Shown: positions 5,543-55,279 of the stretch, piece by piece | How positions within the stretch are numbered: position 1 is the stretch's first letter | How the letters are laid out: every line of letters begins with the position of its first letter | NCBI RefSeq assembly: GCF_055900595.2 | Contig: NZ_CM148325.1 | Length of the DNA: 64,000 nucleotides | Strand: one strand, 5' to 3' | The notes under the pieces: model-generated | The model's input: the letters and a program-made list of their open reading frames with translations, nothing else | What the model was told of the DNA's origin: nothing | Database searches by the model: none | Made by a program: the position numbers and the translations under genes

Positions 5543-8118
5543 CGTCCACCTCCGGAGAACAGGCCACCATCGCGCATCTGTGCCTGGATTTCATCACGGG
5601 CACCCTTGCGGGCCATGTCATACACCGCCTTCATCATCTGTGGACCTGGCAGACCATTCGTACCGTCGTTCTGAATCACCACGTTGTTGTTCTGCTCAAA
5701 CCTGATACCCTCTGAACGCCGCATTTGCGCCGGACTTCCGGTGCCACCGACATAACCGCCGGTGGCATAGCCGCGCATCAGCCGGTAGAGATTTCCCACG
5801 CCAATCCGGCTGGTTGCCTCCTTCGTGAAGACAAACTCACCACGGTGAACAATCCCCGCTGGCTCATATTTGCCGCCGGTTCCCGTAAATCCTCCGGTTG
5901 CAAAATGGAATTTCGCCGCAGCGGCCTGAATGGCTGTACCGCCTGACGCGGATGCGCCGCCACCAACAGCCCCGCCAATGGCGCTGCCGATACTCCCGAC
6001 AATCCCCACCATTGCCTGCTTAAGCAGAATTTCTGTCATCATGGACAGCACGGAGCGGGTGAAGCTGCGCCAGTTCTGTTCACTGCCGGTCAGCATCGCC
6101 GCCATATTCTGCGCAATACCATCAAAGGTCTGCGTGGCAGCACTTTTAACCTGCGACATACTGTCCGTGGCGCTCTCTTCCCACTCACTCCAGCCGGACT
6201 TCAGGCCTGCCATCCAGCTCCCGCGAAGCAGGTCTTCAGCCGCCCAGGTCTTTTTCTGCTCTGACATGACGTTATTCAGCGCCAGCGGATTATCGCCATA
6301 CTGTTCCTTCAGGCGCTGTTCCGTGGCTTCCCGTTCTGCCTGCCGGTCAGTCAGCCCCCGGCTTTTCGCATCAATGGCGGCCCGTTTTGCCCGTTGCTGC
6401 TGTGCGAATTTATCCGCCTGCTGCGCCAGCGCGTTCAGGCGCTCCTGATACGTAACCTTGTCGCCAAGTGCAGCCAGCTGGCGTTTGTACTCCAGCGTCT
6501 CATCTTTATGCGCCAGCAGGGATTTCTCCTGTGCAGACAGCTGGCGACGTTGCGCCGCCTCCTCCAGTACCGCGAACTGACTCTCCGCCTTCCACAAATC
6601 CCGGCGCTGCTGGCTGATTTTCTCATTTGCTCCGGCATGCTTCTCCAGCGTCCGGAGTTCAGCCTGAAGCGTCAGCAGGGCAGCATGAGCACTGTCTTCC
6701 TGACGCTCTCCCGCAGACACCTTCACGCCGGACTGTTTCGGCTTTTTCAGCGTCGCTTCATAATCCTTTTTCGCCGCCGCCATCAGCGTGTTGTAATCTG
6801 CCTGCAGGATTTTCCCGTCTTTCAGTGCCTTGTTCAGTTCTTCCTGACGGGCGGTATATTTCTCCAGCGGTGTCTGCAGCCGTTCGTAAGCCTTCTGCGC
6901 CTCTTCGGTATATTTCAGCCGTGATGCCTCAGAGTCGGCCCAGTCCTTTGCTGCCATCTCTCTGGCCTTTTCAAGATCGGCCTGCAACGTGGCGGCTGAA
7001 AGCCCAAGTTGCGCATTCGCTCTGTCCTCCCATGCTCCCCGGAGATTGGCAAGAAATGCTGAGGTTTTACCGCGCCGGTGGCTCCGGCTCTGATACCACT
7101 GCCATTTTTTGTCCGCCTCATCAAAAGCCTTTTCTGCTTTCTCCAGCATTTCCCGGGCAGTGTCCGGGCGACCAATATCCAGCACCGAATCCCACATGGA
7201 TTTGAATGCCCGCGCTGTCCTGTCTGCCCAGGTCTCCAGCGTGCCCATGTTCTCTTTCAGGCGGCGGGTCTGGTCATCAAACCCTTTCGTTGCGGCCTCG
7301 TTCGCCGCCTGCAATGCCCCTGCCTCATCGCCGGAACGCTGCAACTGAGCAACATACGCAATCTGCTCCGCCGTCACGTTATGGAACTGGCGCGCCATCG
7401 CCGTCAGCCCCGACGTCGGGTCTGTGGTCAGCTTCCCGAAGGCTTCAGCGACCTTGTCCACCTCCACGCCGGATGCAGAGGAGAAACGCGCCACACTCTG
7501 GCTGATGGACGCAATCTGAGCCTCACCGCTTACCCCCGCCTTAACCAGTGCGCTGAGTGACTCGCTGGTCTGGTTAAACGTCAGCCCTGCCGCCTGCCCG
7601 GCTCTGGACAGGACCAGCATACGATCTGCCGTCAGACCCGACTGATTGCCGGAAAGGACCAGCGTTTTGTTGAAATCGGACAGGGTTGAGTTGCCCTGAT
7701 ACCAGGCATACGCCAGCGCACCGGTCGCCACCGCCAGCGAGGTGGCCCCGACCATCGGCAGGGTGATCGCACCGGCAAGCCCCCTGAACATGGGGATCAT
7801 CCCGCCGAAGGAGTCCTTCACCTGACCGCCCTGTTGCAGCAGGATCAGCCACGGACTCTGCCCGCCTGCAAGCTGTGTGGCCACGTCGGTGAACTGTGCA
7901 GGCAGCATACGCATGGCGGCTTTATACTGTCCGACGGAAATCCCCGCTTTCTGTGCAGCCAGCGCCTGTCGGCTCAGCGACTGTTCAACGACTGCCGCTG
8001 TTTTTTTCGCATCACTTTCCGTACCGGAAAAATGACGCCTGACTCTGGCCATCTGCTCGTCAAATCTGGCCGCATCCAGACTTAAATCAACGACCAGATC
8101 GCCTACCGGTTCAGCCAT
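5539..8118 (-). CDS. H: tail tape measure protein H
   Basis: 859-aa ORF (lambda H 853 aa); Ala/Gln-rich coiled-coil centre; Gly-rich C-terminal part; synteny. Confidence 0.9.
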   Translation of the reverse strand: MAEPVGDLVVDLSLDAARFDEQMARVRRHFSGTESDAKKTAAVVEQSLSRQALAAQKAGISVGQYKAAMRMLPAQFTDVATQLAGGQSPWLILLQQGGQVKDSFGGMIPMFRGLAGAITLPMVGATSLAVATGALAYAWYQGNSTLSDFNKTLVLSGNQSGLTADRMLVLSRAGQAAGLTFNQTSESLSALVKAGVSGEAQIASISQSVARFSSASGVEVDKVAEAFGKLTTDPTSGLTAMARQFHNVTAEQIAYVAQLQRSGDEAGALQAANEAATKGFDDQTRRLKENMGTLETWADRTARAFKSMWDSVLDIGRPDTAREMLEKAEKAFDEADKKWQWYQSRSHRRGKTSAFLANLRGAWEDRANAQLGLSAATLQADLEKAREMAAKDWADSEASRLKYTEEAQKAYERLQTPLEKYTARQEELNKALKDGKILQADYNTLMAAAKKDYEATLKKPKQSGVKVSAGERQEDSAHAALLTLQAELRTLEKHAGANEKISQQRRDLWKAESQFAVLEEAAQRRQLSAQEKSLLAHKDETLEYKRQLAALGDKVTYQERLNALAQQADKFAQQQRAKRAAIDAKSRGLTDRQAEREATEQRLKEQYGDNPLALNNVMSEQKKTWAAEDLLRGSWMAGLKSGWSEWEESATDSMSQVKSAATQTFDGIAQNMAAMLTGSEQNWRSFTRSVLSMMTEILLKQAMVGIVGSIGSAIGGAVGGGASASGGTAIQAAAAKFHFATGGFTGTGGKYEPAGIVHRGEFVFTKEATSRIGVGNLYRLMRGYATGGYVGGTGSPAQMRRSEGIRFEQNNNVVIQNDGTNGLPGPQMMKAVYDMARKGARDEIQAQMRDGGLFSGGGR

Positions 8119-16599: not shown

Positions 16600-17277
16600 A
16601 TGTCCATCATTTTTAATGGACACTATCGTATGAAACACCGGACCTGGATCACTGAAGCTTTACGTCTTCACTTTGAAGAACATTTACCCCGGGTTGTGGC
16701 CGGGCGTCGCCTGGGTGTACCAAAATCAACAGTTTGTAGTATGTTCGTGCGCTTTCGGAGAGCTGGCCTTTCGTGGCCTTTGCCCGCAGGCATGTCGGAG
16801 CAGGAACTTGATGCCTGCCTTTACGGACAATTTTCCACGGTACCAGTCGTACGTCCTGAAAGCACCGTTATATCCGAAGCCCCCGTGGTAAAAAAACGTC
16901 CCCGGCGGCCCAACTTCCCTTATGAGTTTAAAATCGCCTTAGTGGAGCAGTCACTGCAGCCCGGAGCCTGTGTGGCGCAGATCGCCCGGGAAAACGGAAT
17001 CAACGATAACCTGCTCTTCAACTGGCGCCATCAATACCGGAAAGGTGGCCTGCTGCCTTCCGGAAAAAATATGCCGGCACTGCTTCCCGTGACGTTAACG
17101 CCGGAGCCGGATAATAAAATCCCGGCCCCCGCACAGGAACCAGAGCGGATAAATACACCGTCCGACAGTCTGTGTTGTGAGCTGGTTCTGCCGGCCGGAA
17201 CTCTCAGGCTTAAAGGTAAACTGACGCCGGCGTTATTACAGACACTTATCCGCGAAATAAAAGGGAGCAGCCACTGA
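16600..17277 (+). CDS. IS66 accessory protein TnpA (orf1)
   Basis: First ORF of the IS66-type operon; stop overlaps the next start (TGATGA); true start may be an internal Met. Confidence 0.8.
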   Translation: MSIIFNGHYRMKHRTWITEALRLHFEEHLPRVVAGRRLGVPKSTVCSMFVRFRRAGLSWPLPAGMSEQELDACLYGQFSTVPVVRPESTVISEAPVVKKRPRRPNFPYEFKIALVEQSLQPGACVAQIARENGINDNLLFNWRHQYRKGGLLPSGKNMPALLPVTLTPEPDNKIPAPAQEPERINTPSDSLCCELVLPAGTLRLKGKLTPALLQTLIREIKGSSH

Positions 17278-17624
17278 TGATATCTCTCCCTGCAGGTTCG
17301 CGTATCTGGCTGGTTGCAGGTATCACCGATATGCGAAATGGCTTTAACGGCCTGGCATCAAAAGTTCAGAACGTCCTGAAGGATGACCCGTTCTCCGGAC
17401 ACCTGTTCATCTTCCGCGGACGCCGGGGTGACCAGATAAAAGTGTTGTGGGCTGACAGTGACGGACTGTGCCTCTTCACCAAACGCCTGGAGCGGGGCCG
17501 CTTCGTCTGGCCAGTCACCCGTGACGGCAAGGTGCACCTTACTCCGGCTCAGTTATCCATGCTTCTTGAAGGTATCAACTGGAAGCACCCGAAACGAACG
17601 GAACGCGCTGGAATCCGCATATAA
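17277..17624 (+). CDS. IS66 accessory protein TnpB (orf2)
   Basis: 115-aa ORF, typical IS66 Orf2 size and position. Confidence 0.85.
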   Translation: MISLPAGSRIWLVAGITDMRNGFNGLASKVQNVLKDDPFSGHLFIFRGRRGDQIKVLWADSDGLCLFTKRLERGRFVWPVTRDGKVHLTPAQLSMLLEGINWKHPKRTERAGIRI

Positions 17625-17643
17625 CCCGTTGTAAAGTGAGGAT

Positions 17644-19215
17644 ATGGACACCTCACTTGCTCATGAGAACGCCCGCCTGCGGGCACTGTTGCAGACGCAA
17701 CAGGACACCATCCGCCAGATGGCTGAATACAACCGCCTGCTCTCACAGCGGGTGGCGGCTTATGCTTCCGAAATCAACCGGCTGAAGGCGCTGGTTGCGA
17801 AACTGCAACGTATGCAGTTCGGTAAAAGCTCAGAAAAACTTCGTGCAAAAACCGAACGGCAGATACAGGAAGCACAGGAGCGAATCAGCGCACTTCAGGA
17901 AGAAATGGCGGAAACGCTGGGTGAGCAATATGACCCGGTACTGCCATCCGCCCTGCGCCAGTCTTCAGCCCGTAAACCGTTACCGGCCTCACTTCCCCGT
18001 GAAACCCGGGTTATCCGGCCGGAAGAGGAATGCTGTCCTGCCTGTGGTGGTGAACTCAGTTCTCTGGGATGTGATGTGTCAGAGCAACTGGAGCTTATCA
18101 GCAGCGCCTTTAAGGTTATCGAAACACAACGTCCGAAACAGGCCTGTTGCCGGTGCGACCATATCGTGCAGGCACCAGTACCTTCAAAACCCATTGCACG
18201 CAGTTATGCCGGAGCGGGGCTTCTGGCCCATGTTGTCACCGGGAAATATGCAGACCATCTGCCGTTATACCGCCAGTCAGAAATATACCGTCGTCAGGGA
18301 GTGGAGCTGAGCCGTGCCACACTGGGGCGCTGGACAGGTGCTGTTGCTGAACTGCTGGAGCCGCTGTATGACGTCCTGCGCCAGTATGTGCTGATGCCCG
18401 GTAAAGTCCATGCTGATGATATCCCCGTCCCGGTCCAGGAGCCGGGCAGCGGTAAAACCCGGACAGCCCGGCTGTGGGTCTACGTCCGTGATGACCGTAA
18501 CGCCGGTTCACAGATGCCCCCGGCGGTCTGGTTCGCGTACAGTCCGGACCGGAAAGGTATCCATCCACAAAATCACCTGGCCGGTTACAGCGGTGTGCTT
18601 CAGGCCGATGCTTACGGTGGTTACCGGGCGTTATACGAATCCGGCAGAATAACGGAAGCCGCGTGTATGGCTCATGCCCGGAGAAAAATCCACGATGTGC
18701 ATGCAAGAGCGCCCACCTACATCACCACGGAAGCCCTGCAGCGTATCGGTGAACTGTATGCCATCGAGGCAGAGGTCCGGGGCTGTTCAGCAGAACAGCG
18801 TCTGGCGGCAAGAAAAGCCAGAGCCGCGCCACTGATGCAGTCACTGTATGACTGGATACAGCAACAGATGAAAACACTGTCGCGTCACTCAGATACGGCA
18901 AAAGCGTTCGCATACCTGCTGAAACAGTGGGATGCACTGAACGTGTACTGCAGTAATGGCTGGGTGGAAATCGACAACAACATCGCAGAGAACGCCTTAC
19001 GGGGAGTGGCCGTAGGCCGGAAAAACTGGATGTTCGCGGGTTCCGACAGCGGTGGTGAACATGCGGCGGTGTTGTACTCGCTGATCGGCACATGCCGTCT
19101 GAACAATGTGGAGCCAGAAAAGTGGCTGCGTTACGTCATTGAACATATCCAGGACTGGCCGGCAAACCGGGTACGCGATCTGTTGCCCTGGAAAGTTGAT
19201 CTGAGCTCTCAGTAA
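17644..19215 (+). CDS. IS66-family transposase TnpC (orf3)
   Basis: 523-aa ORF; N-terminal leucine-zipper-like region, CxxC...CxxC zinc motif (CCPACGG...CCRCDH), DDE-type core. Confidence 0.9.
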
Positions 19216-19241: not shown

Positions 19242-20834
19242 TTACTTCATACGGGCATAGAGAATTTCTTTTGCGGTGTCCGTCCCCACTTCACACAGAT
19301 ACACGCCCCGCTGATTGCGGGTTTTTGGCATGGTGATCACCGGCTTGCCATAGACAGATGCGCCTTTTACCGGCAGCACCCGGAAAACACCGTGTTTTTT
19401 TGACCTCTGATAAACGATTTCGCCATCGATCCCCCCGATGTCCCAGCAGACACGGGAAATGGTCATTTCGGTTCCGTCTGCATGGCGGTATTTTTTGTTG
19501 ATCGCTGCATCCACACGTAACAGCGTCTCTTCCTCATCGGGACGTCCCATAATAATGATTTTATCCACCAGAAAGGCTTCCTCTCCCGGAGCCCATCCCC
19601 AGACATACATCTCAAAACGGTTTCGCTGCGAGTCAATGCCCGCCGTCAGATAAACCACCCGGGCAGGCACCGCCGCCGTGTAACGCACAACCTTATCCAT
19701 CAGTACCTGGTGATCGAGTTTTTCGCCCACGGCCTCTTCCCAGGTCTCGCCCAGCGTGGTGTTCACAAAGGTTTTCAGGCCGTTGGGATCTTTCAGTGCA
19801 TCCAGCCAGTCATAGACTATCTGTACCCAGGTGGTGAACGGACTGTACGCCGTCCAGATATGGAAAGTGATGGAGCGCGGCGGCGGAATTTCATCACCCC
19901 GGGCGCTGAAAAACATCAGGCCGTCACGGGTCCACATGCCCGTGTTTTCAGAGATCCACCGCCCGTTACTCTGGTCAAGCTCAGACTGATGGATCACACA
20001 GCCATGATGCTCACAAAGGTAGAAAACGCTTTCGGGGCTGTCCTTCTCCCATTTAAGGCCAAAAGGCGTGGATTCATCGCCAAATTTCAGATACTGCTCC
20101 TCCCCACAGTGCGGGCAGGGCACATAAAAACGCATGAAATGTGCCGACTCGTTAGCGGCTTTTTCGATCTGGCAGGAGCCTTTGATTTTAGGCGTCGAGC
20201 CGCGAATGGATTTTGGCCATACAGAGCCCTCAATACGCTTATCCCCCAGCAGGGTTGGCGAGCCCTCTTTTTCAACATCAGGTTCAAACGATGAGAGTTC
20301 GTCATAGCAGACCACGTCCACGGATTTTTCACGGTAGTTTTTTGCTGCCGCACCACCCAGGCACCAGAAGCCCACACCCGATGAAAAGCGTTTCAGCGTG
20401 AGAGTATTGTCACGATGTTTACGCCCCAGCCATGGAGAAAGGTCTTTCAGACATGGCACATCCCGAATCGTCGCCTCCACGTGAGACTTCATAAAATCTT
20501 CAGCGGCAGAATCCGTGGGCTGAAAAAGCAGACTGTTTCGGGATTTATGCTCAATAAAATACCCGACCACCCCCAGCAACATCTTTGTATAACCAACACG
20601 GGCAGATTTAATCAGGTTAACAGTGCGAATCAGATCGTTGCCCATACAGTTCATGATGGCGATCTGGAACGGCAGCGTTTTCCATTCTCCCTCACCATAT
20701 GAAGATTCTTTAGGCAGATAATAATTTTGATCAGCCCATTCAACTGCCGTCACCGGCAATGCCCTTATCAGGGGCTGTAATGCTGTTGTGACAGCACTCA
20801 TCATATTATTCAGTTGTTGCTCTGATATATTCAT
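19242..20834 (-). pseudogene. A: terminase large subunit A, N-terminal fragment (truncated by IS66 insertion)
   Basis: Starts MNISEQQLNN..., contains TAVEWADQNYYLPKES and KNYREKSVDV (Walker-like) as in lambda gpA; the stop codon lies inside the IS end. Confidence 0.9.
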
Positions 20835-21315
20835 CGAGTAAATCCGGTAATTTATCCCCTGCCCGCGCACACTGATTTGCCCCCTTCGCAATAAGGGTTT
20901 TCAGATGGTCAAGATGGCGCGGTGTTAAATCAGGAAACTGTCGTTGCATGGATAAAGGGATGGAATCAAGCGTACTGGATAACGCCATTGCCAGCTTGCT
21001 GAGGGCAAAAATACAGAACCCGGTGTCAATAAGTTTTCCTTTTGACACCTCATTTTTTAACTGCTGTGTAACAGCCTGTTCTGCTGTCAGTTCCCATCTG
21101 GCAATAAGCAATTTCTCCTCATAGTCGTCTTCGCTATCGCCATCAGGCACATCGTTTTTACTTCTTCTCAGATACGATATGTAAAAATCACGCCAGGCAT
21201 CCAGATCCAGTTGCCCTCGCTTATTCGATATCGGGGCACCCGGCAATTTCTGCAGTCTGCGAAGCTGGCGATCGGTCAGACTCAAATGCCTGGCAACTTC
21301 AGTCTGCGTAGCCAC
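20806..21315 (-). CDS. nu1: terminase small subunit Nu1
   Basis: 169-aa ORF; N-terminal HTH (MATQTEVARHLSLTDRQLRRL); overlaps start of A; cos immediately upstream. Confidence 0.8.
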   Translation of the reverse strand: MATQTEVARHLSLTDRQLRRLQKLPGAPISNKRGQLDLDAWRDFYISYLRRSKNDVPDGDSEDDYEEKLLIARWELTAEQAVTQQLKNEVSKGKLIDTGFCIFALSKLAMALSSTLDSIPLSMQRQFPDLTPRHLDHLKTLIAKGANQCARAGDKLPDLLDEYIRATTE

Positions 21316-21379: not shown

Positions 21380-21545
21380 CAAACGCACGCATATGTCCGG
21401 TTTGTTTGTACATTTTTTGCACATGTCCGGTTCGCAGAAAGCATGTTTTTATATTTTTCATATAGTTAACTTGCAGAGAAACCGGACATGGATCCCGGAA
21501 AATTTTCATAAATAGCGAAAACGCGCGAGGTCGACGCCCCGTAAC
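21380..21545 (-). promoter_or_regulatory. cos region (cosB-like terminase binding repeats and cosN)
   Basis: Repeated ATGTCCGGTT elements at ~21395, ~21421 and inverted at ~21482; 21528-21540 reverse complement GGGGCGTCGACCT resembles lambda cohesive end GGGCGGCGACCT. Confidence 0.7.
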
Positions 21546-21690
21546 CTGTTGGATCGCCGGAAAGGACCCGAAAAAAACGAGAATAATTATCACTTACAGC
21601 AAGAATCGAATCTGATCTATTCTGATGCTTGCTATTATGTGCCGGCACAAGTGCGTCGTTTACCGTCATTTCACACAGAGGCATCATCAA

Positions 21691-21942: not shown

Positions 21943-22306
21943 CATCCGCATTTACCTGGTATTCCATGATGAGTTCACGCAGCGACTGATAGAGTAAGGA
22001 AAGATGGTTAGCAAAAGCAAAGGCGCATTGCCGCCGCATGCTGCAGGCATTGCAACAGACGAGAGCAGGTATTTTTGACCAGTTGGAAAACTGCCAGCAT
22101 ACTTTGCCCGAGCATATCGCCATCTCATCGGAAACCAGTGCAACTCTTATTCATCGGGTTACACCAGAGAAAAAGAAGAAATGAACAGTGAGGCGTTGTG
22201 TGGCATACAACGCCTTCTTCCATCATTTCTCGTCAGCCATGACAAAAATATAACCGCTGGCTCTTTCATTTTTCTCCTGCTTCCAGCCCCTCTCTACCTG
22301 GAAGCA

Positions 22307-22633
22307 TCAGGGACGTGATGGCGTAAAGATAAATTGTCTCTTCACTCCCTGACGGGGACTATTCTTTTCAAATCTCCATTTCGCCATGGCCTTCACCACT
22401 TCATCACGAAACAAATTATGAGGCTCTGAGCGGAGAAAAACGATCCGTGTCACAGTCCCGTCAGCACCAATATCGAACTTAACCTCAACCAGCCCCTTGA
22501 TATAATTTGCTGCAGCATATTCCGGATATCGTGGATACACCGTCACTAATTGCCGGGGCTCATCAGCTTTTTGCTGCGAGCATCCCACTGCCAGGGCAGA
22601 TAACAGAAAAAGTAGTGAAAGGCGTCTTTTCAT
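22307..22633 (-). CDS. lipoprotein with TonB C-terminal-like domain
   Basis: Start MKRRLSLLFLLSALAVGCSQ (lipobox AVGC) with AGGA RBS; body YPEYAAANYIKGLVEVKFDIGADGTVTRIVFLRSEPHNLFRDEVVKAMAKWRFE aligns with host TonB C-terminus in this same window ([54 protein letters not shown]). Confidence 0.7.
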   Translation of the reverse strand: MKRRLSLLFLLSALAVGCSQQKADEPRQLVTVYPRYPEYAAANYIKGLVEVKFDIGADGTVTRIVFLRSEPHNLFRDEVVKAMAKWRFEKNSPRQGVKRQFIFTPSRP

Positions 22634-23265
22634 TTTTATTCCTACGGGTCTTATTCTGACAATATATCCTGTGTTCCAGACTGCCATATCACCACATCCT
22701 GTGCCATTATCTGACTCACATTACATACATCGCATCAGGATACAGTAGTAGCACTTTCTGTAATACAGCTTCCGGTTTCTTCCACCATCGCACCGGACTG
22801 GCGAGCATGAGGGACAAACCCGCGAACCATAAACGCGGTAAAAACCCGGTGTGCATCGTTTTTGATTATTCCCGCACACTCGCGCAGAAGGAGTTCCCCG
22901 TCGGGCTACGGTCATGGTTAATGCGGGAATACAGCGACGATACAGCGCATGATGTGTCAGGCTTGAATACCTTTATCCGTTAAAAGGGATATCAGTTAAG
23001 TTATCCCGTGTAGGGTATAAGCCATTATCAAAGCCACTCTGTAGGGAGTGGCTTTTGTAATGGCAATAAAAAAGCCCCGCGAATGCGAGGCTAAATCCAG
23101 GTATTTTTAATGACTGGCTCTTATCTCAACGCAGCCCCTTACCGCGCGCCAGATGCTCAATATCAAGCATCAGCAATGAGATGTTTAATCTGGATTCACT
23201 CCAGAAGTGATCACCACCCTGTCTACAGAGCCAGATGTGAAGGATGATGAGTAAAATTATCGCTA

Positions 23266-23748
23266 TCATCGAAGGCATTGCGTCCTGATGTATTCCTGAA
23301 GCGTTCTCAGTGCTGTCTGGTCGCGGATAATTCCGTCCCGGATACCGAGAACGTTTCGTCCAGCAACTGGAGAGAGTTCGACGGTGGCATCATTGCCCAT
23401 GCCGGAGGCGCTGGAGGTTTCGGCTGAGGATGGCACAGGGCATTTTCCTTTGACGAGCACCCTGCCACCATTATCAAGCTTGCGCCGAAGAGCATCATTT
23501 TCAGCTTTCGCATCAGCTAACTCCTTCGTGTATTTTGCATCGAGCGCAGCAACATCACGCTGACGCTGCTGCATGTCAGCGATGGTGGCGGTCGCCTGCT
23601 TCAGCTCACTGACTTTTTTATCACGTTGTTCTTTGTAGGCTATGGCGTTATCACGGTAATGATTGACCGCCAACGACAGGCAGACGATGATGCAGATAAC
23701 CAGAGCATAAATAATCGCGGCGACTCTGCTCACTGATCTATCCCCCAA
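23266..23748 (-). CDS. Rz: spanin inner-membrane subunit Rz
   Basis: N-terminal TM segment [28 protein letters not shown] and [24 protein letters not shown] match lambda Rz; start uncertain. Confidence 0.9.
23307..23513 (-). CDS. Rz1: spanin outer-membrane lipoprotein Rz1 (embedded in Rz, +1 frame)
   Basis: [21 protein letters not shown] lipobox and Pro-rich [13 protein letters not shown], like lambda Rz1. Confidence 0.85.
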
Positions 23749-24263
23749 CAGGCTAATGCGCTTTCCTGGTCACGACGAATAACCTGTCCATAGCAGTTAT
23801 TTGAACGGATACGGCAGTCACGCCCACCATCCTTTATCCACCAGCGAATCGCCTCGCAGGCGCCTTTTCGATCACCGGCATTAAGCCGCTTATAAAACGT
23901 CGACGGGAAACACTTACCGGGGCCAATGTTATAGGGACAGAATGACGCAATACCCGCTTTCTGTGGTTCGGTCAGAGGTACTTTAATATTGCGCTCCACC
24001 CATGCCAGTGCCTTATCACGTTCAATAGCGTTAACCTGGTCGCATTTTTCCTTCGACAGCTTCATTCCGGGAAAAACGGGTTTTCCATCCACCATCGTGG
24101 CACCCCGACAGATGGTCCAGATGCCGGACCCATCGCGGTATGCCGTTGTGTGGTTACCCTCTTTTTCGTCCAGAAACTGATCAAGTATCTGAGGAGCAGA
24201 TGCGCCAGCACCAATCAGCGCCAGAACGGCAGCCGACAGGCCGTATCTGATTTTTGCGTTCAT
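23730..24263 (-). CDS. R: SAR endolysin (T4-lysozyme-like, GH24)
   Basis: N-terminal weakly hydrophobic Gly/Ala-rich segment [16 protein letters not shown]; catalytic E..D..T spacing ([24 protein letters not shown]). Confidence 0.85.
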
Positions 24264-25608: not shown

Positions 25609-25685
25609 TGGACCGCCACCGGGGACTCGAACCTCGCACACTCAACTTAAAGGGTTGACGCTCTTTCCTGATGAGCTAGTGGCGG
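25609..25685 (-). tRNA. tRNA, identity uncertain (anticodon loop CCUUUAA)
   Basis: Acceptor CCGCCAC/GTGGCGG, D-arm GCTC..GAGC, anticodon stem TCAAC/GTTGA, T-loop TTCGAGT, 3' CCA encoded; position 33 is C rather than U. Confidence 0.65.
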
Positions 25686-25687
25686 TT

Positions 25688-25762
25688 GGTGGCCCTTGCT
25701 GGATTTGAACCAGCGACCTGGCGATTATGAGTCGCTCGCTCTCACCACTGAGCTAAAGGGCC
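25688..25762 (-). tRNA. ileZ: tRNA-Ile2 (CAU anticodon; ileX/ileZ-like)
   Basis: Reverse complement GGCCCTTTAGCTCAGTGGTGAGAGCGAGCGACTCATAATCGCCAGGTCGCTGGTTCAAATCCAGCAAGGGCCACCA is a near-match to E. coli ileX; T-arm GCTGG-TTCAAAT-CCAGC. Confidence 0.85.
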
Positions 25763-43916: not shown

Positions 43917-44636
43917 TTACTGAATTTCGGTGGTGCCGTTAATTTTAAACAGGATATTCACCACAATCCCACTGCCTGGCTTACCCGGCTCATAACGCCA
44001 TCTGCGCATCGCATTTTTCACCTCACGCTCAAACATGTTCGCAGGCTTGGCTGAGAGGATTTGCACGTTATCCACGCGACCATCCGGCGTGACATCAAAT
44101 TTAACTTTAACCTGCCCTTCAATGCGCAATGCCTGTGCTCGTGCCGGATACTGCGGCTGATTGCGACTTAATGCGCGTGGTCCTGAAGCCACACTTGTAA
44201 CCGGCTTGCTGGTTGCAGCCGTCGCCGTACTTGATGTCGGGCGCGCGGGTGCCGTATTTTCAAACGGTGATGCCGGACGCGATTCTACGGGTTTGACATC
44301 GCGTTTTGGCTGCTCCTGTACCTTTTTCACCGGCTTCGGTTTTGGCTTAGGTTTCGGCTTAGGCTTTTCAATGACCACCGGTGCTTCTTTTGGCGGTTCA
44401 GGGATCGGCTCAGGTTCCGGTTCTGGCTCTACCACCGGCTCCGGTGGCGGCTGAACGGCTTGTGGCGGTTCGAGATCCGCAGGCGCAACCATCGTGACAG
44501 AAATTGGCTGCGCAGGCGCAGGTAGTTCAATAACCTGATGTACCGAGGTATAGAGCAGACCCGCCACAACAGCACCATGAATGCAGACCGAAAGTAACGT
44601 CGGCCAGGGGAAGCGGCGAGGTAAATCAAGGGTCAT
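43917..44636 (-). CDS. tonB: TonB energy transducer
   Basis: 239-aa product [21 protein letters not shown]..., Pro-rich (EP)n/(KP)n spacer, conserved C-terminal domain. Confidence 0.95.
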
Positions 44637-52912: not shown

Positions 52913-54544
52913 TTAGTGCTTCACAATGTACATATTCCGGGTGTAGGTATTATCCAGCGGATCTTTGCCGGTATAGCCACCAACCCACGGTTTCACCAGA
53001 CGCGCATTCACGTAGTAATAAACAGGAACAATGGCCGAATCCTTATCCAGCTGTTGTTCTGCTTTAGTGTACAGAGCTGTGCGCTGCGCCTCGTCAGTCG
53101 CTTTCAGCGTTTCCGCCATAATGCTGTCAAAGGCCGGGCTCTTATAATGCGCGGTATTCATCGAGCTGTTCGACAGCATGGTGTTCAGGAAGGAAGTTGG
53201 TTCGTTGTAGTCTGCGCACCAGCCTGCACGGGCCACATCAAAAGTGCCCTGGTGACGGGTGTCGAGGAACGTTTTCCACTCCTGGTTAACCAGTTTGACG
53301 TTTACACCAATGTTTTTCTTCCACAATGAAGAGGCAGCAATCGCCAGCTTTTTATGCAGATCGGAGGTGTTATACAACAGGTTGATGGTCAACGGTTTGT
53401 CTGCGGTATAACCCGCTTCAGCCAGCAGTTTTTTCGCTTCTTCGTTACGTTTTTCCTGGCTCCAGCCAAACCATTCCGGCTGAGTCAATTTTGCGCCATC
53501 AGTATACGGTGGAGTGTAACCATAGGCGGGCATGTCGCCCTGCGCTTTCACTTTATTAACAATGATATCGCGGTCCATACCCAGTTTCAGTGCGGTACGC
53601 ACACGTACATCGTTGAATGGCGGTTTCTGGTTGTTAATTTCGTAATAATAAGTGCACAGGTATGGATCAACGTGAACTTCGTCCGGGATCTCTTTTTTCA
53701 GCTTCTGGAACAATTCGATCGGCATGTTGTTATAAGTCATGTCGATTTCACCACTACGGTAGCGGTTGACATCGGTAACTTCAGAAGCAATAGGCAAATA
53801 GGTTACCTGGTTAATAACGGTTTTCGCGTTGTTCCAGTAGGTTGGGCTGCGTTCAAGAACGATTCGTTCGTTTACGACCCAATCTTTTAAGGTATAGGCA
53901 CCGTTGGTGATGATATTACCAGGCTGGGTCCATTTTTCGCCGAATTTCTCGATAGCGGCTTTTGGCACCGGTGAAGTTGATGGGTGAACAAGTAATTTAT
54001 AGAAGTACGGAACAGGTTCACTTAAGGTGACTTCTAATGTGTGATCATCAATAGCTTTCACGCCGAGATCGGTAATCGGTTTTTTCCCTTCAAGAATTTC
54101 ATCAATACCGGCGATATGCCCATATTGCAGATAACTGGCATACGGAGAAGCGGTGTTTGGATCAACAGAACGTTGCCAGCTATACACAAAGTCTTGTGCT
54201 GTGACTGGCGTGCCATCAGACCATTTCGCATCTTTACGCAAATGGAAGGTCCAGACTTTCGCGTCTTTATTATCCCAGGATTCAGCGACGCCAGGTGCCG
54301 GATGACCGTCAAGATCGCTGACCAGTAAGCCTTCAAACAGGTCTCGGCTGATATTAGACTCCGGAACACCTTCAATTTTATGCGGATCCAATGACTGAAC
54401 TTCTGAACCATTGTTACGTACCAGCGTTTGTTTTTCCGCCAGTGTGACGCCTGCGGGTACATCAGCTGCCAGCGCGACATTCCCTGCCATAAGCGCAGCC
54501 AGAACGCCAGCTGCTACTAAACTTCTCTTGGTGATGTTGGTCAT
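52913..54544 (-). CDS. oppA: periplasmic oligopeptide-binding protein OppA
   Basis: 543 aa starting MTNITKRSLVAAGVLAALMAGNVALA (signal peptide); family 5 solute-binding protein. Confidence 0.95.
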   Translation of the reverse strand: MTNITKRSLVAAGVLAALMAGNVALAADVPAGVTLAEKQTLVRNNGSEVQSLDPHKIEGVPESNISRDLFEGLLVSDLDGHPAPGVAESWDNKDAKVWTFHLRKDAKWSDGTPVTAQDFVYSWQRSVDPNTASPYASYLQYGHIAGIDEILEGKKPITDLGVKAIDDHTLEVTLSEPVPYFYKLLVHPSTSPVPKAAIEKFGEKWTQPGNIITNGAYTLKDWVVNERIVLERSPTYWNNAKTVINQVTYLPIASEVTDVNRYRSGEIDMTYNNMPIELFQKLKKEIPDEVHVDPYLCTYYYEINNQKPPFNDVRVRTALKLGMDRDIIVNKVKAQGDMPAYGYTPPYTDGAKLTQPEWFGWSQEKRNEEAKKLLAEAGYTADKPLTINLLYNTSDLHKKLAIAASSLWKKNIGVNVKLVNQEWKTFLDTRHQGTFDVARAGWCADYNEPTSFLNTMLSNSSMNTAHYKSPAFDSIMAETLKATDEAQRTALYTKAEQQLDKDSAIVPVYYYVNARLVKPWVGGYTGKDPLDNTYTRNMYIVKH

Positions 54545-55279
54545 TGTTTTTTGGACTCCCTCATTATAATTACTGGTATTAACCAGCATGTGTAATCCCG
54601 GATTGGGACCCTGCACAGGCTCGGAGACTTTCTGCTGTCAGGTTACTTTATCGTTACGGATTGCTATCACCGACTTTATTTATTCTGGTGATTCAGACGA
54701 TCACCTTATGTCGATTCGTACTGTGTCTCCCCTGTCGAGACACATTATTCTTTTGCGACGCTCTTTAATTGTTAATTATTCTCATTACCAATAAAAATCG
54801 CCTGGCGGTTGGTCGGAAAGTACCAAATGCGCTTCTTACTCGCCAATACATTTTGCAAAATTGTTAAGCAATTCTCTTTTATTGACCGTATCAGAATCTA
54901 TAGCTTGTATCCATGTCTTAACAAACATCTTTCAATTCAATCAAATAGAGATTGGTTAAGCATGTCTATCTTTTCTGATTACAGTTCCAGTAGTGAAATG
55001 CACAATAATTTAACAATTGATTGTTATTTAGCACTTTCCTCTACCAAAGGCAGTGGAATTACTAATATCATTTCAATTATTCTTCAGCAAGCCCAGGATT
55101 ATGATGTGGCGAAAATAACATGATGGTGAGGCGAAGCAGTTAAGGAAATCCTTATAAATAACTGTAATTTCAGAGGAATATTCTGACCTATTCCTTTTGC
55201 TTTTGATAACTGCGCGGGAACAAAGTAAAAATAATGACGATAAAACGGAGCATGTCAGCTCCGTTTCATTTGAAAGGAA

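Follow-up and report, generated by a model that had tools for sequence, protein, structure and literature searches.

What would a temperate phage gain from carrying a single domain of a protein that its host already encodes, and what would that domain do when it is placed in the wrong membrane? This question is raised by a small gene on the minus strand, at 22307..22633 (stop codon included), of a 64,000-nt stretch of contig NZ_CM148325.1 (NCBI RefSeq assembly GCF_055900595.2), the whole of which we refer to as the window. The gene lies in the late region of a lambda-like prophage and encodes a lipoprotein whose mature part is a C-terminal domain (CTD) of the TonB type. The product is an uncharacterised variant of a known domain, namely a stand-alone TonB CTD with a predicted lipid anchor. 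We favor, at a probability of roughly 40%, the reading that it binds Ton boxes, without being energised itself, on the inner side of the outer membrane (OM), where it would compete with TonB.

Neither the domain nor its annotation in prophages is new. An older record reads 'Partial tonB-like membrane protein encoded within prophage CP-933N', and in phage 21 the gene is listed as CPT_21_73, 'TonB C-terminal domain protein', adjoining bor. The novelty implied by a preliminary description of the locus thus does not extend to the gene, long annotated as tonB-like in prophages, but it does hold for the function, which is unpublished: a full-text literature search returned no functional study of the lipoprotein, just passing annotation-level mentions of a prophage 'tonB'. 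What appears to be new here, as far as sequence comparison can tell, is a family of ~110-aa TonB-CTD lipoproteins, chromosomal as well as phage-borne and with putative Fur boxes, for which our searches found no earlier description.

A TonB C-terminal domain on a predicted lipid anchor

The coding sequence (CDS), supported by the listing of open reading frames (ORFs), Pfam and RefSeq, consists of 108 codons and a stop, and RefSeq holds the identical protein as WP_029400675.1, 'TonB family protein'. The preliminary description was right to place a small lipoprotein here and slightly off about its size, which it had put at about 109 aa; it had named no strand. An alternative reading of 126 aa begins at an ATG further upstream; RefSeq uses the start that gives 108 aa, and a Shine-Dalgarno sequence, AGGAAT (22638..22643, minus strand), lies 4 nt 5' of the corresponding ATG. 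Codons 1-18 (22580..22633, minus strand) encode the signal peptide and lipobox, recognised by a pattern match: the N-terminus, MKRRLSLLFLLSALAVGC, fits the lipoprotein signal pattern, and Cys18 (22580..22582) is followed by serine at position +2, with no aspartate at that position. Under the Lol sorting rule, a serine after the cysteine directs a lipoprotein to the OM, and an OM destination is therefore predicted. We expect that the mature protein sits in the OM and faces the periplasm. The lipobox cysteine is invariant among 13 family members and in 80 of the 80 viral loci retrieved from IMG/VR, which form our sample for intactness, and the lipoprotein signal is kept in every allele and relative compared.

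The TonB_C domain, delimited by Pfam and by the AlphaFold model, spans approximately residues 26-104 (22322..22558, minus strand). It is the sole Pfam match of the protein (PF03544; E = 3.2e-13, 50.4 bits, residues 33-102), and the NCBIfam model TIGR01352 scores it at 48.6 bits against a cut-off of 27.1. Equivalog models of full-length TonB (NCBIfam, PRK10819 type) failed, with 46-67 bits against cut-offs of 265-448. Besides the cleavable signal, there is neither an N-terminal membrane anchor nor a proline-rich spacer, as the preliminary description had noted, and in the model only ~8-9 residues separate Cys18 from the folded domain. A tether of this length would keep the domain close against the membrane, at the place where Ton boxes emerge; judging by the dimensions of the envelope, it is probably too short for the domain to reach the peptidoglycan.

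The closest comparison is available within the window, where host tonB occupies 43917..44636 on the minus strand (assigned by translation and BLASTP); it lies outside the prophage and serves only as a comparison partner. BLASTP aligned the lipoprotein to residues 150-230 of this TonB with 33 of 81 identities (41%), ungapped, at E = 3e-19. All 14 sequence matches in the Protein Data Bank (PDB) are CTDs of TonB or of TonB homologues. The AlphaFold model, built from an alignment of 20 sequences, reaches a predicted local distance difference test (pLDDT) score above 97 over residues 30-103 and shows a short beta strand, alpha-1, beta-1, beta-2, alpha-2 and beta-3, the order of elements of the TonB CTD. 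The top PDB matches found by Foldseek are all the E. coli TonB CTD, at 38-40% identity and a target-normalised TM score of 0.91-0.92, with root-mean-square deviations of 1.5 Å for 1u07, 1.0 Å for 2gsk chain B (from the BtuB complex) and 0.9 Å for 2grx chain C (from the FhuA complex). The viral structure library BFVD contained no significant match to the model. The homology to the host TonB that the preliminary description had claimed, and the two checks it had proposed, a PF03544 profile search and a superposition on the TonB CTD, thus came out in its favor.

The lipoprotein and the E. coli TonB CTD share not only the fold and the order of helices and strands but also the YP motif, beta-3 and the aromatic core: F53, F75, W86 and F103 are kept and align with F180, F202, W213 and F230 of TonB. 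The lipoprotein is predicted to be lipid-anchored to the OM, its missing transmembrane anchor and spacer leave no link to ExbB-ExbD, and R158, Q160 and R166 of TonB are replaced. Its beta-3 comprises residues 94-103, and the chain ends five residues further, in PSRP; the last ~7 residues of TonB are absent.

In the complexes of TonB with BtuB and FhuA, the Ton box pairs as a parallel strand with beta-3 of TonB (PMC11658791). We modelled a fusion of the mature domain, a 20-residue GS linker and residues 1-17 of BtuB. In this single run, made without a control and without coordinates, the BtuB Ton box DTLVVT was predicted as a beta strand at pLDDT above 50, and the linker was disordered. The result is weakly compatible with beta-augmentation, given that the training of AlphaFold included TonB complexes.

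Given that its mature part is a TonB CTD without energy coupling, we propose that the lipoprotein occupies Ton boxes unproductively. Its exposed beta-3 edge strand would pair with the Ton boxes of TonB-dependent transporters in the manner of TonB, and the Ton boxes of TonB-dependent colicins, as they emerge, could be bound through beta-3 likewise. Lacking the anchor and spacer needed for ExbB-ExbD coupling, as read from the sequence, the lipoprotein could not pull, and the occupied Ton boxes would be withheld from TonB in a competition between the two. Entry of T1/phi80-type phages, group B colicins, microcins and sideromycins would then be damped or blocked, at the cost of some loss of siderophore and B12 uptake. 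A weak promoter of its own, which we consider probable, would make this moron available to the lysogen.

The fold, the free edge of beta-3 and the short tether all agree with this proposal, and it has two experimental precedents. One is artificial: in the passage of PMC9841981 that relates the work of Howard, Herrmann, Stratilo and Braun (2001, J Bacteriol 183:5885), an overproduced periplasmic TonB domain, likewise uncoupled from the inner membrane, inhibits iron import via TonB-dependent transporters. Those engineered fragments are soluble and longer, whereas the lipoprotein is natural, predicted to be lipid-anchored and 41% identical to TonB, and its inhibitory effect is proposed by analogy. 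The other precedent is Llp of phage T5, a phage lipoprotein that acts at the periplasmic face of FhuA and jams this transporter; its authors suggest that jamming of TonB-dependent transporters is widespread (bioRxiv 10.1101/2022.06.28.497910). Members of the Llp/Cor family are also small phage-encoded OM lipoproteins, but they are unrelated to the TonB-CTD lipoprotein in sequence and fold, their genes adjoin the gene for the receptor-binding protein, and they are specific for the phage's own receptor. The TonB-CTD lipoprotein is encoded between the lysis genes and cos, not after J, and could in principle address any Ton box.

A conserved gene and its Fur-boxed relatives

The gene is neither rare nor decaying. 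We found its CDS in 1615 of 5426 complete E. coli genomes (~30%), in 1-4 copies each. Two alleles account for these: one ~97% identical to the window copy (1224 genomes) and one ~72-74% identical (391 genomes). Besides phage 21, carriers include the phages ev017, Perceval and PhiR47_2, among others, and the second allele is carried by Stx1a-converting phages, JLK-2012 and Lys8385Vzw. The probiotic strain Nissle 1917 has a 97% identical copy (NZ_CP022686, 4800403..4800729) in the order essD-rrrD-rzpD-iss-TonB family protein-terminase, and Klebsiella phage ST13-OXA48phi12.4 carries a 41% identical relative after its lysis cassette. The 108-aa ORF is intact, lipobox included, in 80/80 viral loci. 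Between the two alleles, dN is 0.18 and dS 1.46, a ratio of 0.125 (0.11 when only the domain is counted), which marks the gene as functional and as kept by purifying selection. In all 80 loci it follows the endolysin and Rz on the same strand, while around it the types of endolysin, Rz and terminase vary and bor is present or absent. The gene is thus a mobile unit in a fixed slot.

Relatives exist beyond E. coli and beyond phages. A profile search of 1.84 billion representative proteins recovered ~110-aa lipobox proteins among many true TonBs and multi-repeat TonB_C proteins; many of the top matches were proteins of 300-900 aa with 2-6 tandem TonB_C domains (P0038, P0040, P0043 and others). 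One of the short relatives, P0037, is encoded on a phage contig, where a DUF2514 i-spanin gene and an HNH-terminase module flank it; it thus occupies the slot that the gene has in the E. coli phages, as does the relative in the Klebsiella phage. Other short relatives are chromosomal. Species-representative genomes, scanned with a 6-sequence alignment, yielded full-length chromosomal relatives in Raoultella ornithinolytica, R. planticola, Enterobacter sp., Serratia grimesii, Erwinia typographi and two Pantoea species. The S. grimesii gene lies between ycgN and dsbB, and no phage genes were found near the chromosomal relatives from these genomes. A gene for a DUF1440 (YagU-like) membrane protein occurs near the lipoprotein gene both in phage ST13-OXA48phi12.4 (232..858 of the locus) and in the Raoultella chromosomes (6727..7301 of the locus); this shared neighbor may be the trace of a captured chromosomal segment or a coincidence.

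The chromosomal Enterobacterales proteins have the same combination of lipobox and TonB_C as the window protein, the same length of ~110 aa and the same motifs (YPxYAxAN, SEPxHLFD and KPxxG), at 38-49% identity across the aligned columns of the domain. In a neighbor-joining tree, the enterobacterial TonB CTDs form one clade with 100% bootstrap support, and 13 lipoproteins, including the Klebsiella-phage and P0037 copies, also group at 100%, with P0061 outside. The position of the two E. coli phage alleles is intermediate, robustly inside neither the lipoprotein nor the TonB group. Their identity is 43-49% to the closest of the lipoproteins (35-49% over the whole set) and 38-42% to TonB CTDs. 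Their signal, length, C-terminal truncation and motifs, which they share with the lipoproteins, place them with this family.

Where the chromosomal genes differ from the window allele is in their location outside prophages and in their upstream regions. We scored matches to the Fur-box consensus GATAATGATAATCATTATC out of 19 positions. The count misses the promoter of host tonB itself at a threshold of at least 13/19, and only scores of 14-17/19 were taken as evidence. Matches of 14-17/19, ending 7-45 nt before the start codon, precede the copies of Raoultella, Enterobacter, Serratia, Erwinia and Pantoea, as well as several metagenomic relatives from unidentified gammaproteobacteria and the P0037 copy on its phage contig. 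Across 89 kb of flanking sequence, every match of at least 15/19 sits at this start-codon-proximal spot. In the 64-kb window, only two matches reach 15/19, at 54771..54789 and 23243..23261; the former lies upstream of an ORF at 52913..54616, which by its position may be oppA, the latter lies at the 3' end of Rz, and both are possibly due to chance. The chromosomal family is therefore predicted to be repressed by Fur and induced by iron starvation, and these Fur-boxed TonB_C lipoproteins appear to add to the iron-starvation regulon a member not described before.

The E. coli phage alleles have no comparable site. The Stx1a-type allele has an invariant palindrome, TTAGAATAAGACTTATTCTTATC, located 16 nt upstream in most of 44 loci (10 or 22 nt in three), which scores 13/19, a value expected by chance about once per 3 kb. 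In the window/phage 21 allele, a 13-nt deletion removes the right half of this palindrome in 36/36 loci, and the best Fur match of the window allele in the proximal 90 nt is 10/19. Since 13/19 is common by chance, we claim no iron regulation for either E. coli phage allele. The E. coli phage gene probably goes back to Fur-regulated TonB-CTD lipoproteins of bacteria; the window allele has lost half of the operator-like palindrome, and with it presumably the regulation.

Lysis genes, cos and a conserved non-coding element

The preliminary description had placed the gene between Rz/Rz1 and cos, and this is where it lies, 630 nt past Rz/Rz1 and 770 nt ahead of cos. The features in this paragraph are all on the minus strand. 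The endolysin gene (23730..24263; PHROG 7, E = 7e-64; RefSeq 'lysozyme') is followed by the gene for the i-spanin Rz (23266..23733; PHROG 13, E = 8e-74; RefSeq 'lysis protein'), in which that for the o-spanin Rz1 is embedded (23307..23513; PHROG 3198, E = 1e-25). A 50-aa ORF also lies upstream on the same strand, alongside these lysis genes. The cos region (21540..21569) was located through phage 21: 22949..21540 of the window is 96% identical to the final 1390 nt of that phage, and mapping its annotated cosQ across places GGGTCCT at ~21563..21569. The cohesive-end site is placed at ~21540, where the phage 21 homology ends, and is followed by GGGCGTCGACCT. The first gene past cos encodes the small terminase subunit (20806..21315; PHROG 57/1790 and RefSeq). 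Further upstream, the annotation of an identical locus in strain GF4 puts two tRNA genes (tRNA-Lys and tRNA-Ile, ~25609..25762) in the interval from the Q antiterminator to the lysis genes, a position typical of lambdoid late regions.

Its location on the late strand, past Rz and ahead of cos, leads us to take the gene as part of the late transcript; on lambdoid architecture, co-transcription with the Q-antiterminated operon would necessarily follow. A scan found a hairpin resembling an intrinsic terminator between the Rz region and the lipoprotein gene (23073..23092, minus strand; 8-bp stem with 6 G-C pairs, followed by a T-run), which, by the logic of lambdoid late operons, Q-modified polymerase should read through. 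Downstream of the gene, the T-run of a second hairpin (22192..22214) is poor.

The prophage is defective. An IS66-family element (~16600..19215, with ORFs at 16600..17277, 17277..17624 and 17644..19215) splits the large terminase gene, whose N-terminal part remains at 19242..20891, and DNA packaging is therefore impossible for this prophage; the gene is unbroken in strain GF4. Prophage gene J extends past the left end of the window. The prophage adjoins ompW-tonB, with host tonB ~21 kb from the lipoprotein gene, and the presence of both TonB domains in one window is a coincidence of this position.

Immediately upstream of the CDS, the proximal region (22638..22666, minus strand), defined by alignment and by a variant table of the 80 viral loci, contains the Shine-Dalgarno sequence, a conserved motif, ATTGTCAGAATAAGAC (22648..22663), that lines up with the promoter-operator region found in the relatives and in the Stx1a-type allele runs on into the palindrome TTAGAATAAGACTTATTCTTATC, and two candidate -10 elements, TATATT (22661..22666) and TGTCAGAAT (22653..22661). 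These features suggest that the motif may function as a promoter.

Further upstream lies a conserved and apparently non-coding element of ~180 nt (22771..22949, minus strand), identified by alignment, which precedes the gene in 80/80 viral loci. It occurs in 3961 of the 5426 E. coli genomes, including prophages that lack the lipoprotein gene; set against the 1615 genomes that carry the gene, this reveals the presence-or-absence at a fixed slot that characterises a moron. Between the two alleles, the element is 85-90% conserved, against 72% for the CDS, and has no conserved reading frame. In a consensus RNA fold of the late-transcript strand, 98.5% of cells are paired, mostly through one-sided changes that preserve G-U pairing, with 2 compensatory pairs. 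A search of Rfam with the surroundings of the gene, this element included, gave nothing above chance, and the single-sequence fold of the 327 nt upstream is not unusual (z = -0.8). We regard the element as a candidate structured RNA of lambdoid late regions. RefSeq annotates a 58-aa 'hypothetical protein' antisense to it (WP_001205133.1, 22807..22983, plus strand), which we considered as a divergent regulator but discarded: most of the 80 loci lack a start for this frame and interrupt it by a stop at codon 9-12, and it is probably not a real gene.

Proposed Ton-box competition and the alternatives

Several observations weigh against Ton-box competition. Binding of Ton boxes by the lipoprotein is itself extrapolated from homology, and R158, Q160 and R166 of TonB, whose side chains genetics and crystallography have tied to transporter contacts, correspond to T31, Y33 and Y39 in the BLASTP alignment. 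The fusion model may simply replay the TonB complexes on which AlphaFold was trained. A generic sigma-70 scan of the lipoprotein strand passed no promoter, and none of the defense families in PADLOC matches the lipoprotein. Finally, the putative Fur boxes of the chromosomal relatives would induce the family precisely when TonB-dependent uptake is most needed, a moment at which a plain inhibitor would be harmful. These boxes point to a benefit of the family when iron is scarce, either as a guard against the colicins, microcins and phages that exploit de-repressed transporters or in a positive role in uptake.

The second possibility, that the protein is a positive accessory of iron acquisition, a Fur-controlled OM docking module that phages carry as an iron-uptake moron, strikes us as unlikely, though worth serious attention. 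It might recruit TonB or periplasmic binding proteins to transporters or keep Ton boxes ready for TonB, and the 14-17/19 Fur boxes before chromosomal relatives, metagenomic relatives and one phage contig add weight to it, as does the occurrence of the Stx1a-type allele in Stx1a phages. Phage 21, a carrier, also has a sitABCD iron/manganese transporter (OL657228, 21967..24502, beyond the side tail fiber genes), a system of TonB-independent metal uptake; the link is not general, however, for the near-identical prophage of strain Ch1 lacks sit genes. The window allele has no Fur-like site, there is no obvious way for a non-energised CTD to open a transporter plug, and the experimental data on free periplasmic TonB domains in the relevant passage of PMC9841981 show inhibition only. 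A different form of inhibition, in which the target is TonB itself, trapped at the OM by pairing of its CTD with that of the lipoprotein, appears to us improbable. Solved TonB CTD fragments crystallise as dimers, the top structural match, 1u07, among them, and the aromatics F53, F75, W86 and F103 are conserved; yet these residues double as the core of the fold, and the predicted outcome would be much like that of Ton-box competition.

The position of the gene suggests two further functions, both poorly matched by the protein. Bor/Iss of lambda is likewise a lipoprotein moron in the Rz-to-cos interval of lambdoid phages, and a Bor-like role in serum resistance or envelope tethering, for example through the peptidoglycan affinity that has been proposed for the TonB C-terminus, would suit an OM lipoprotein in the bor/iss slot. 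We consider it very unlikely, as a tether of an estimated 8-9 residues would probably leave the peptidoglycan out of reach, the sequence bears no similarity to Bor, bor is on the opposite strand, and bor/iss is a separate gene side by side with this one in phage 21 and Nissle 1917. Still less credible is a part in lysis, as an accessory or spanin-like product of the late operon. The gene invariably follows the lysis cassette on the late strand, and PHROG 1267, which it matches at E = 2e-40, is labeled 'Rz-like spanin'; we rejected this label, which looks like a positional transfer of annotation, Rz and Rz1 being present separately and complete. In addition, the gene is 630 nt from Rz, past a terminator-like hairpin, its chromosomal relatives have no lysis genes nearby, and the folded TonB_C domain is unlike a short proline-rich o-spanin and lacks the C-terminal membrane segment of a unimolecular spanin. 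The lipoprotein thus fails the defining features of TonB, spanins, Llp/Cor and Bor, and the earlier statement that it is not Cor-, Llp- or Bor-like stands, its Pfam and PHROG matches being of the TonB_C type only. The least plausible account of all is a functionless, decaying leftover of a captured tonB fragment, as the words 'partial', 'truncated' and 'TonB fragment' in several records might imply. This is already contradicted by the selection data (a dN/dS of 0.125 at a dS of 1.46, with ORF and lipobox intact in 80/80 loci and the gene in 1615 complete genomes), and the protein was placed with a distinct lipoprotein family rather than with enterobacterial TonB, in which its dedicated lipoprotein signal is absent.

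Ton-box competition could also be one instance of a broader phenomenon. We tentatively suggest, with more doubt than attaches to the competition itself, that enterobacteria and their temperate phages share a class of 'anti-TonB' lipoproteins not recognised before. These would be OM mimics of the TonB CTD, iron-regulated when chromosomal, that control access to transporter Ton boxes or catch those of incoming colicins and microcins, and phages would spread them as a broad immunity to TonB-dependent phages and bacteriocins. What is at stake is the function of a gene present in ~30% of complete E. coli genomes, including Nissle 1917, as well as in phage 21 and Stx1a-converting phages. If the lipoprotein uncouples transporters from TonB, exclusion and immunity would act at the energy-coupling step that these receptors have in common, not at any one of them, and carriers would respond differently to phages, group B colicins, microcins and conjugates of siderophores with antibiotics, and would have altered iron and B12 nutrition. 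If it assists uptake instead, the family would be an unrecognised part of Fur-controlled iron acquisition in several Enterobacterales.

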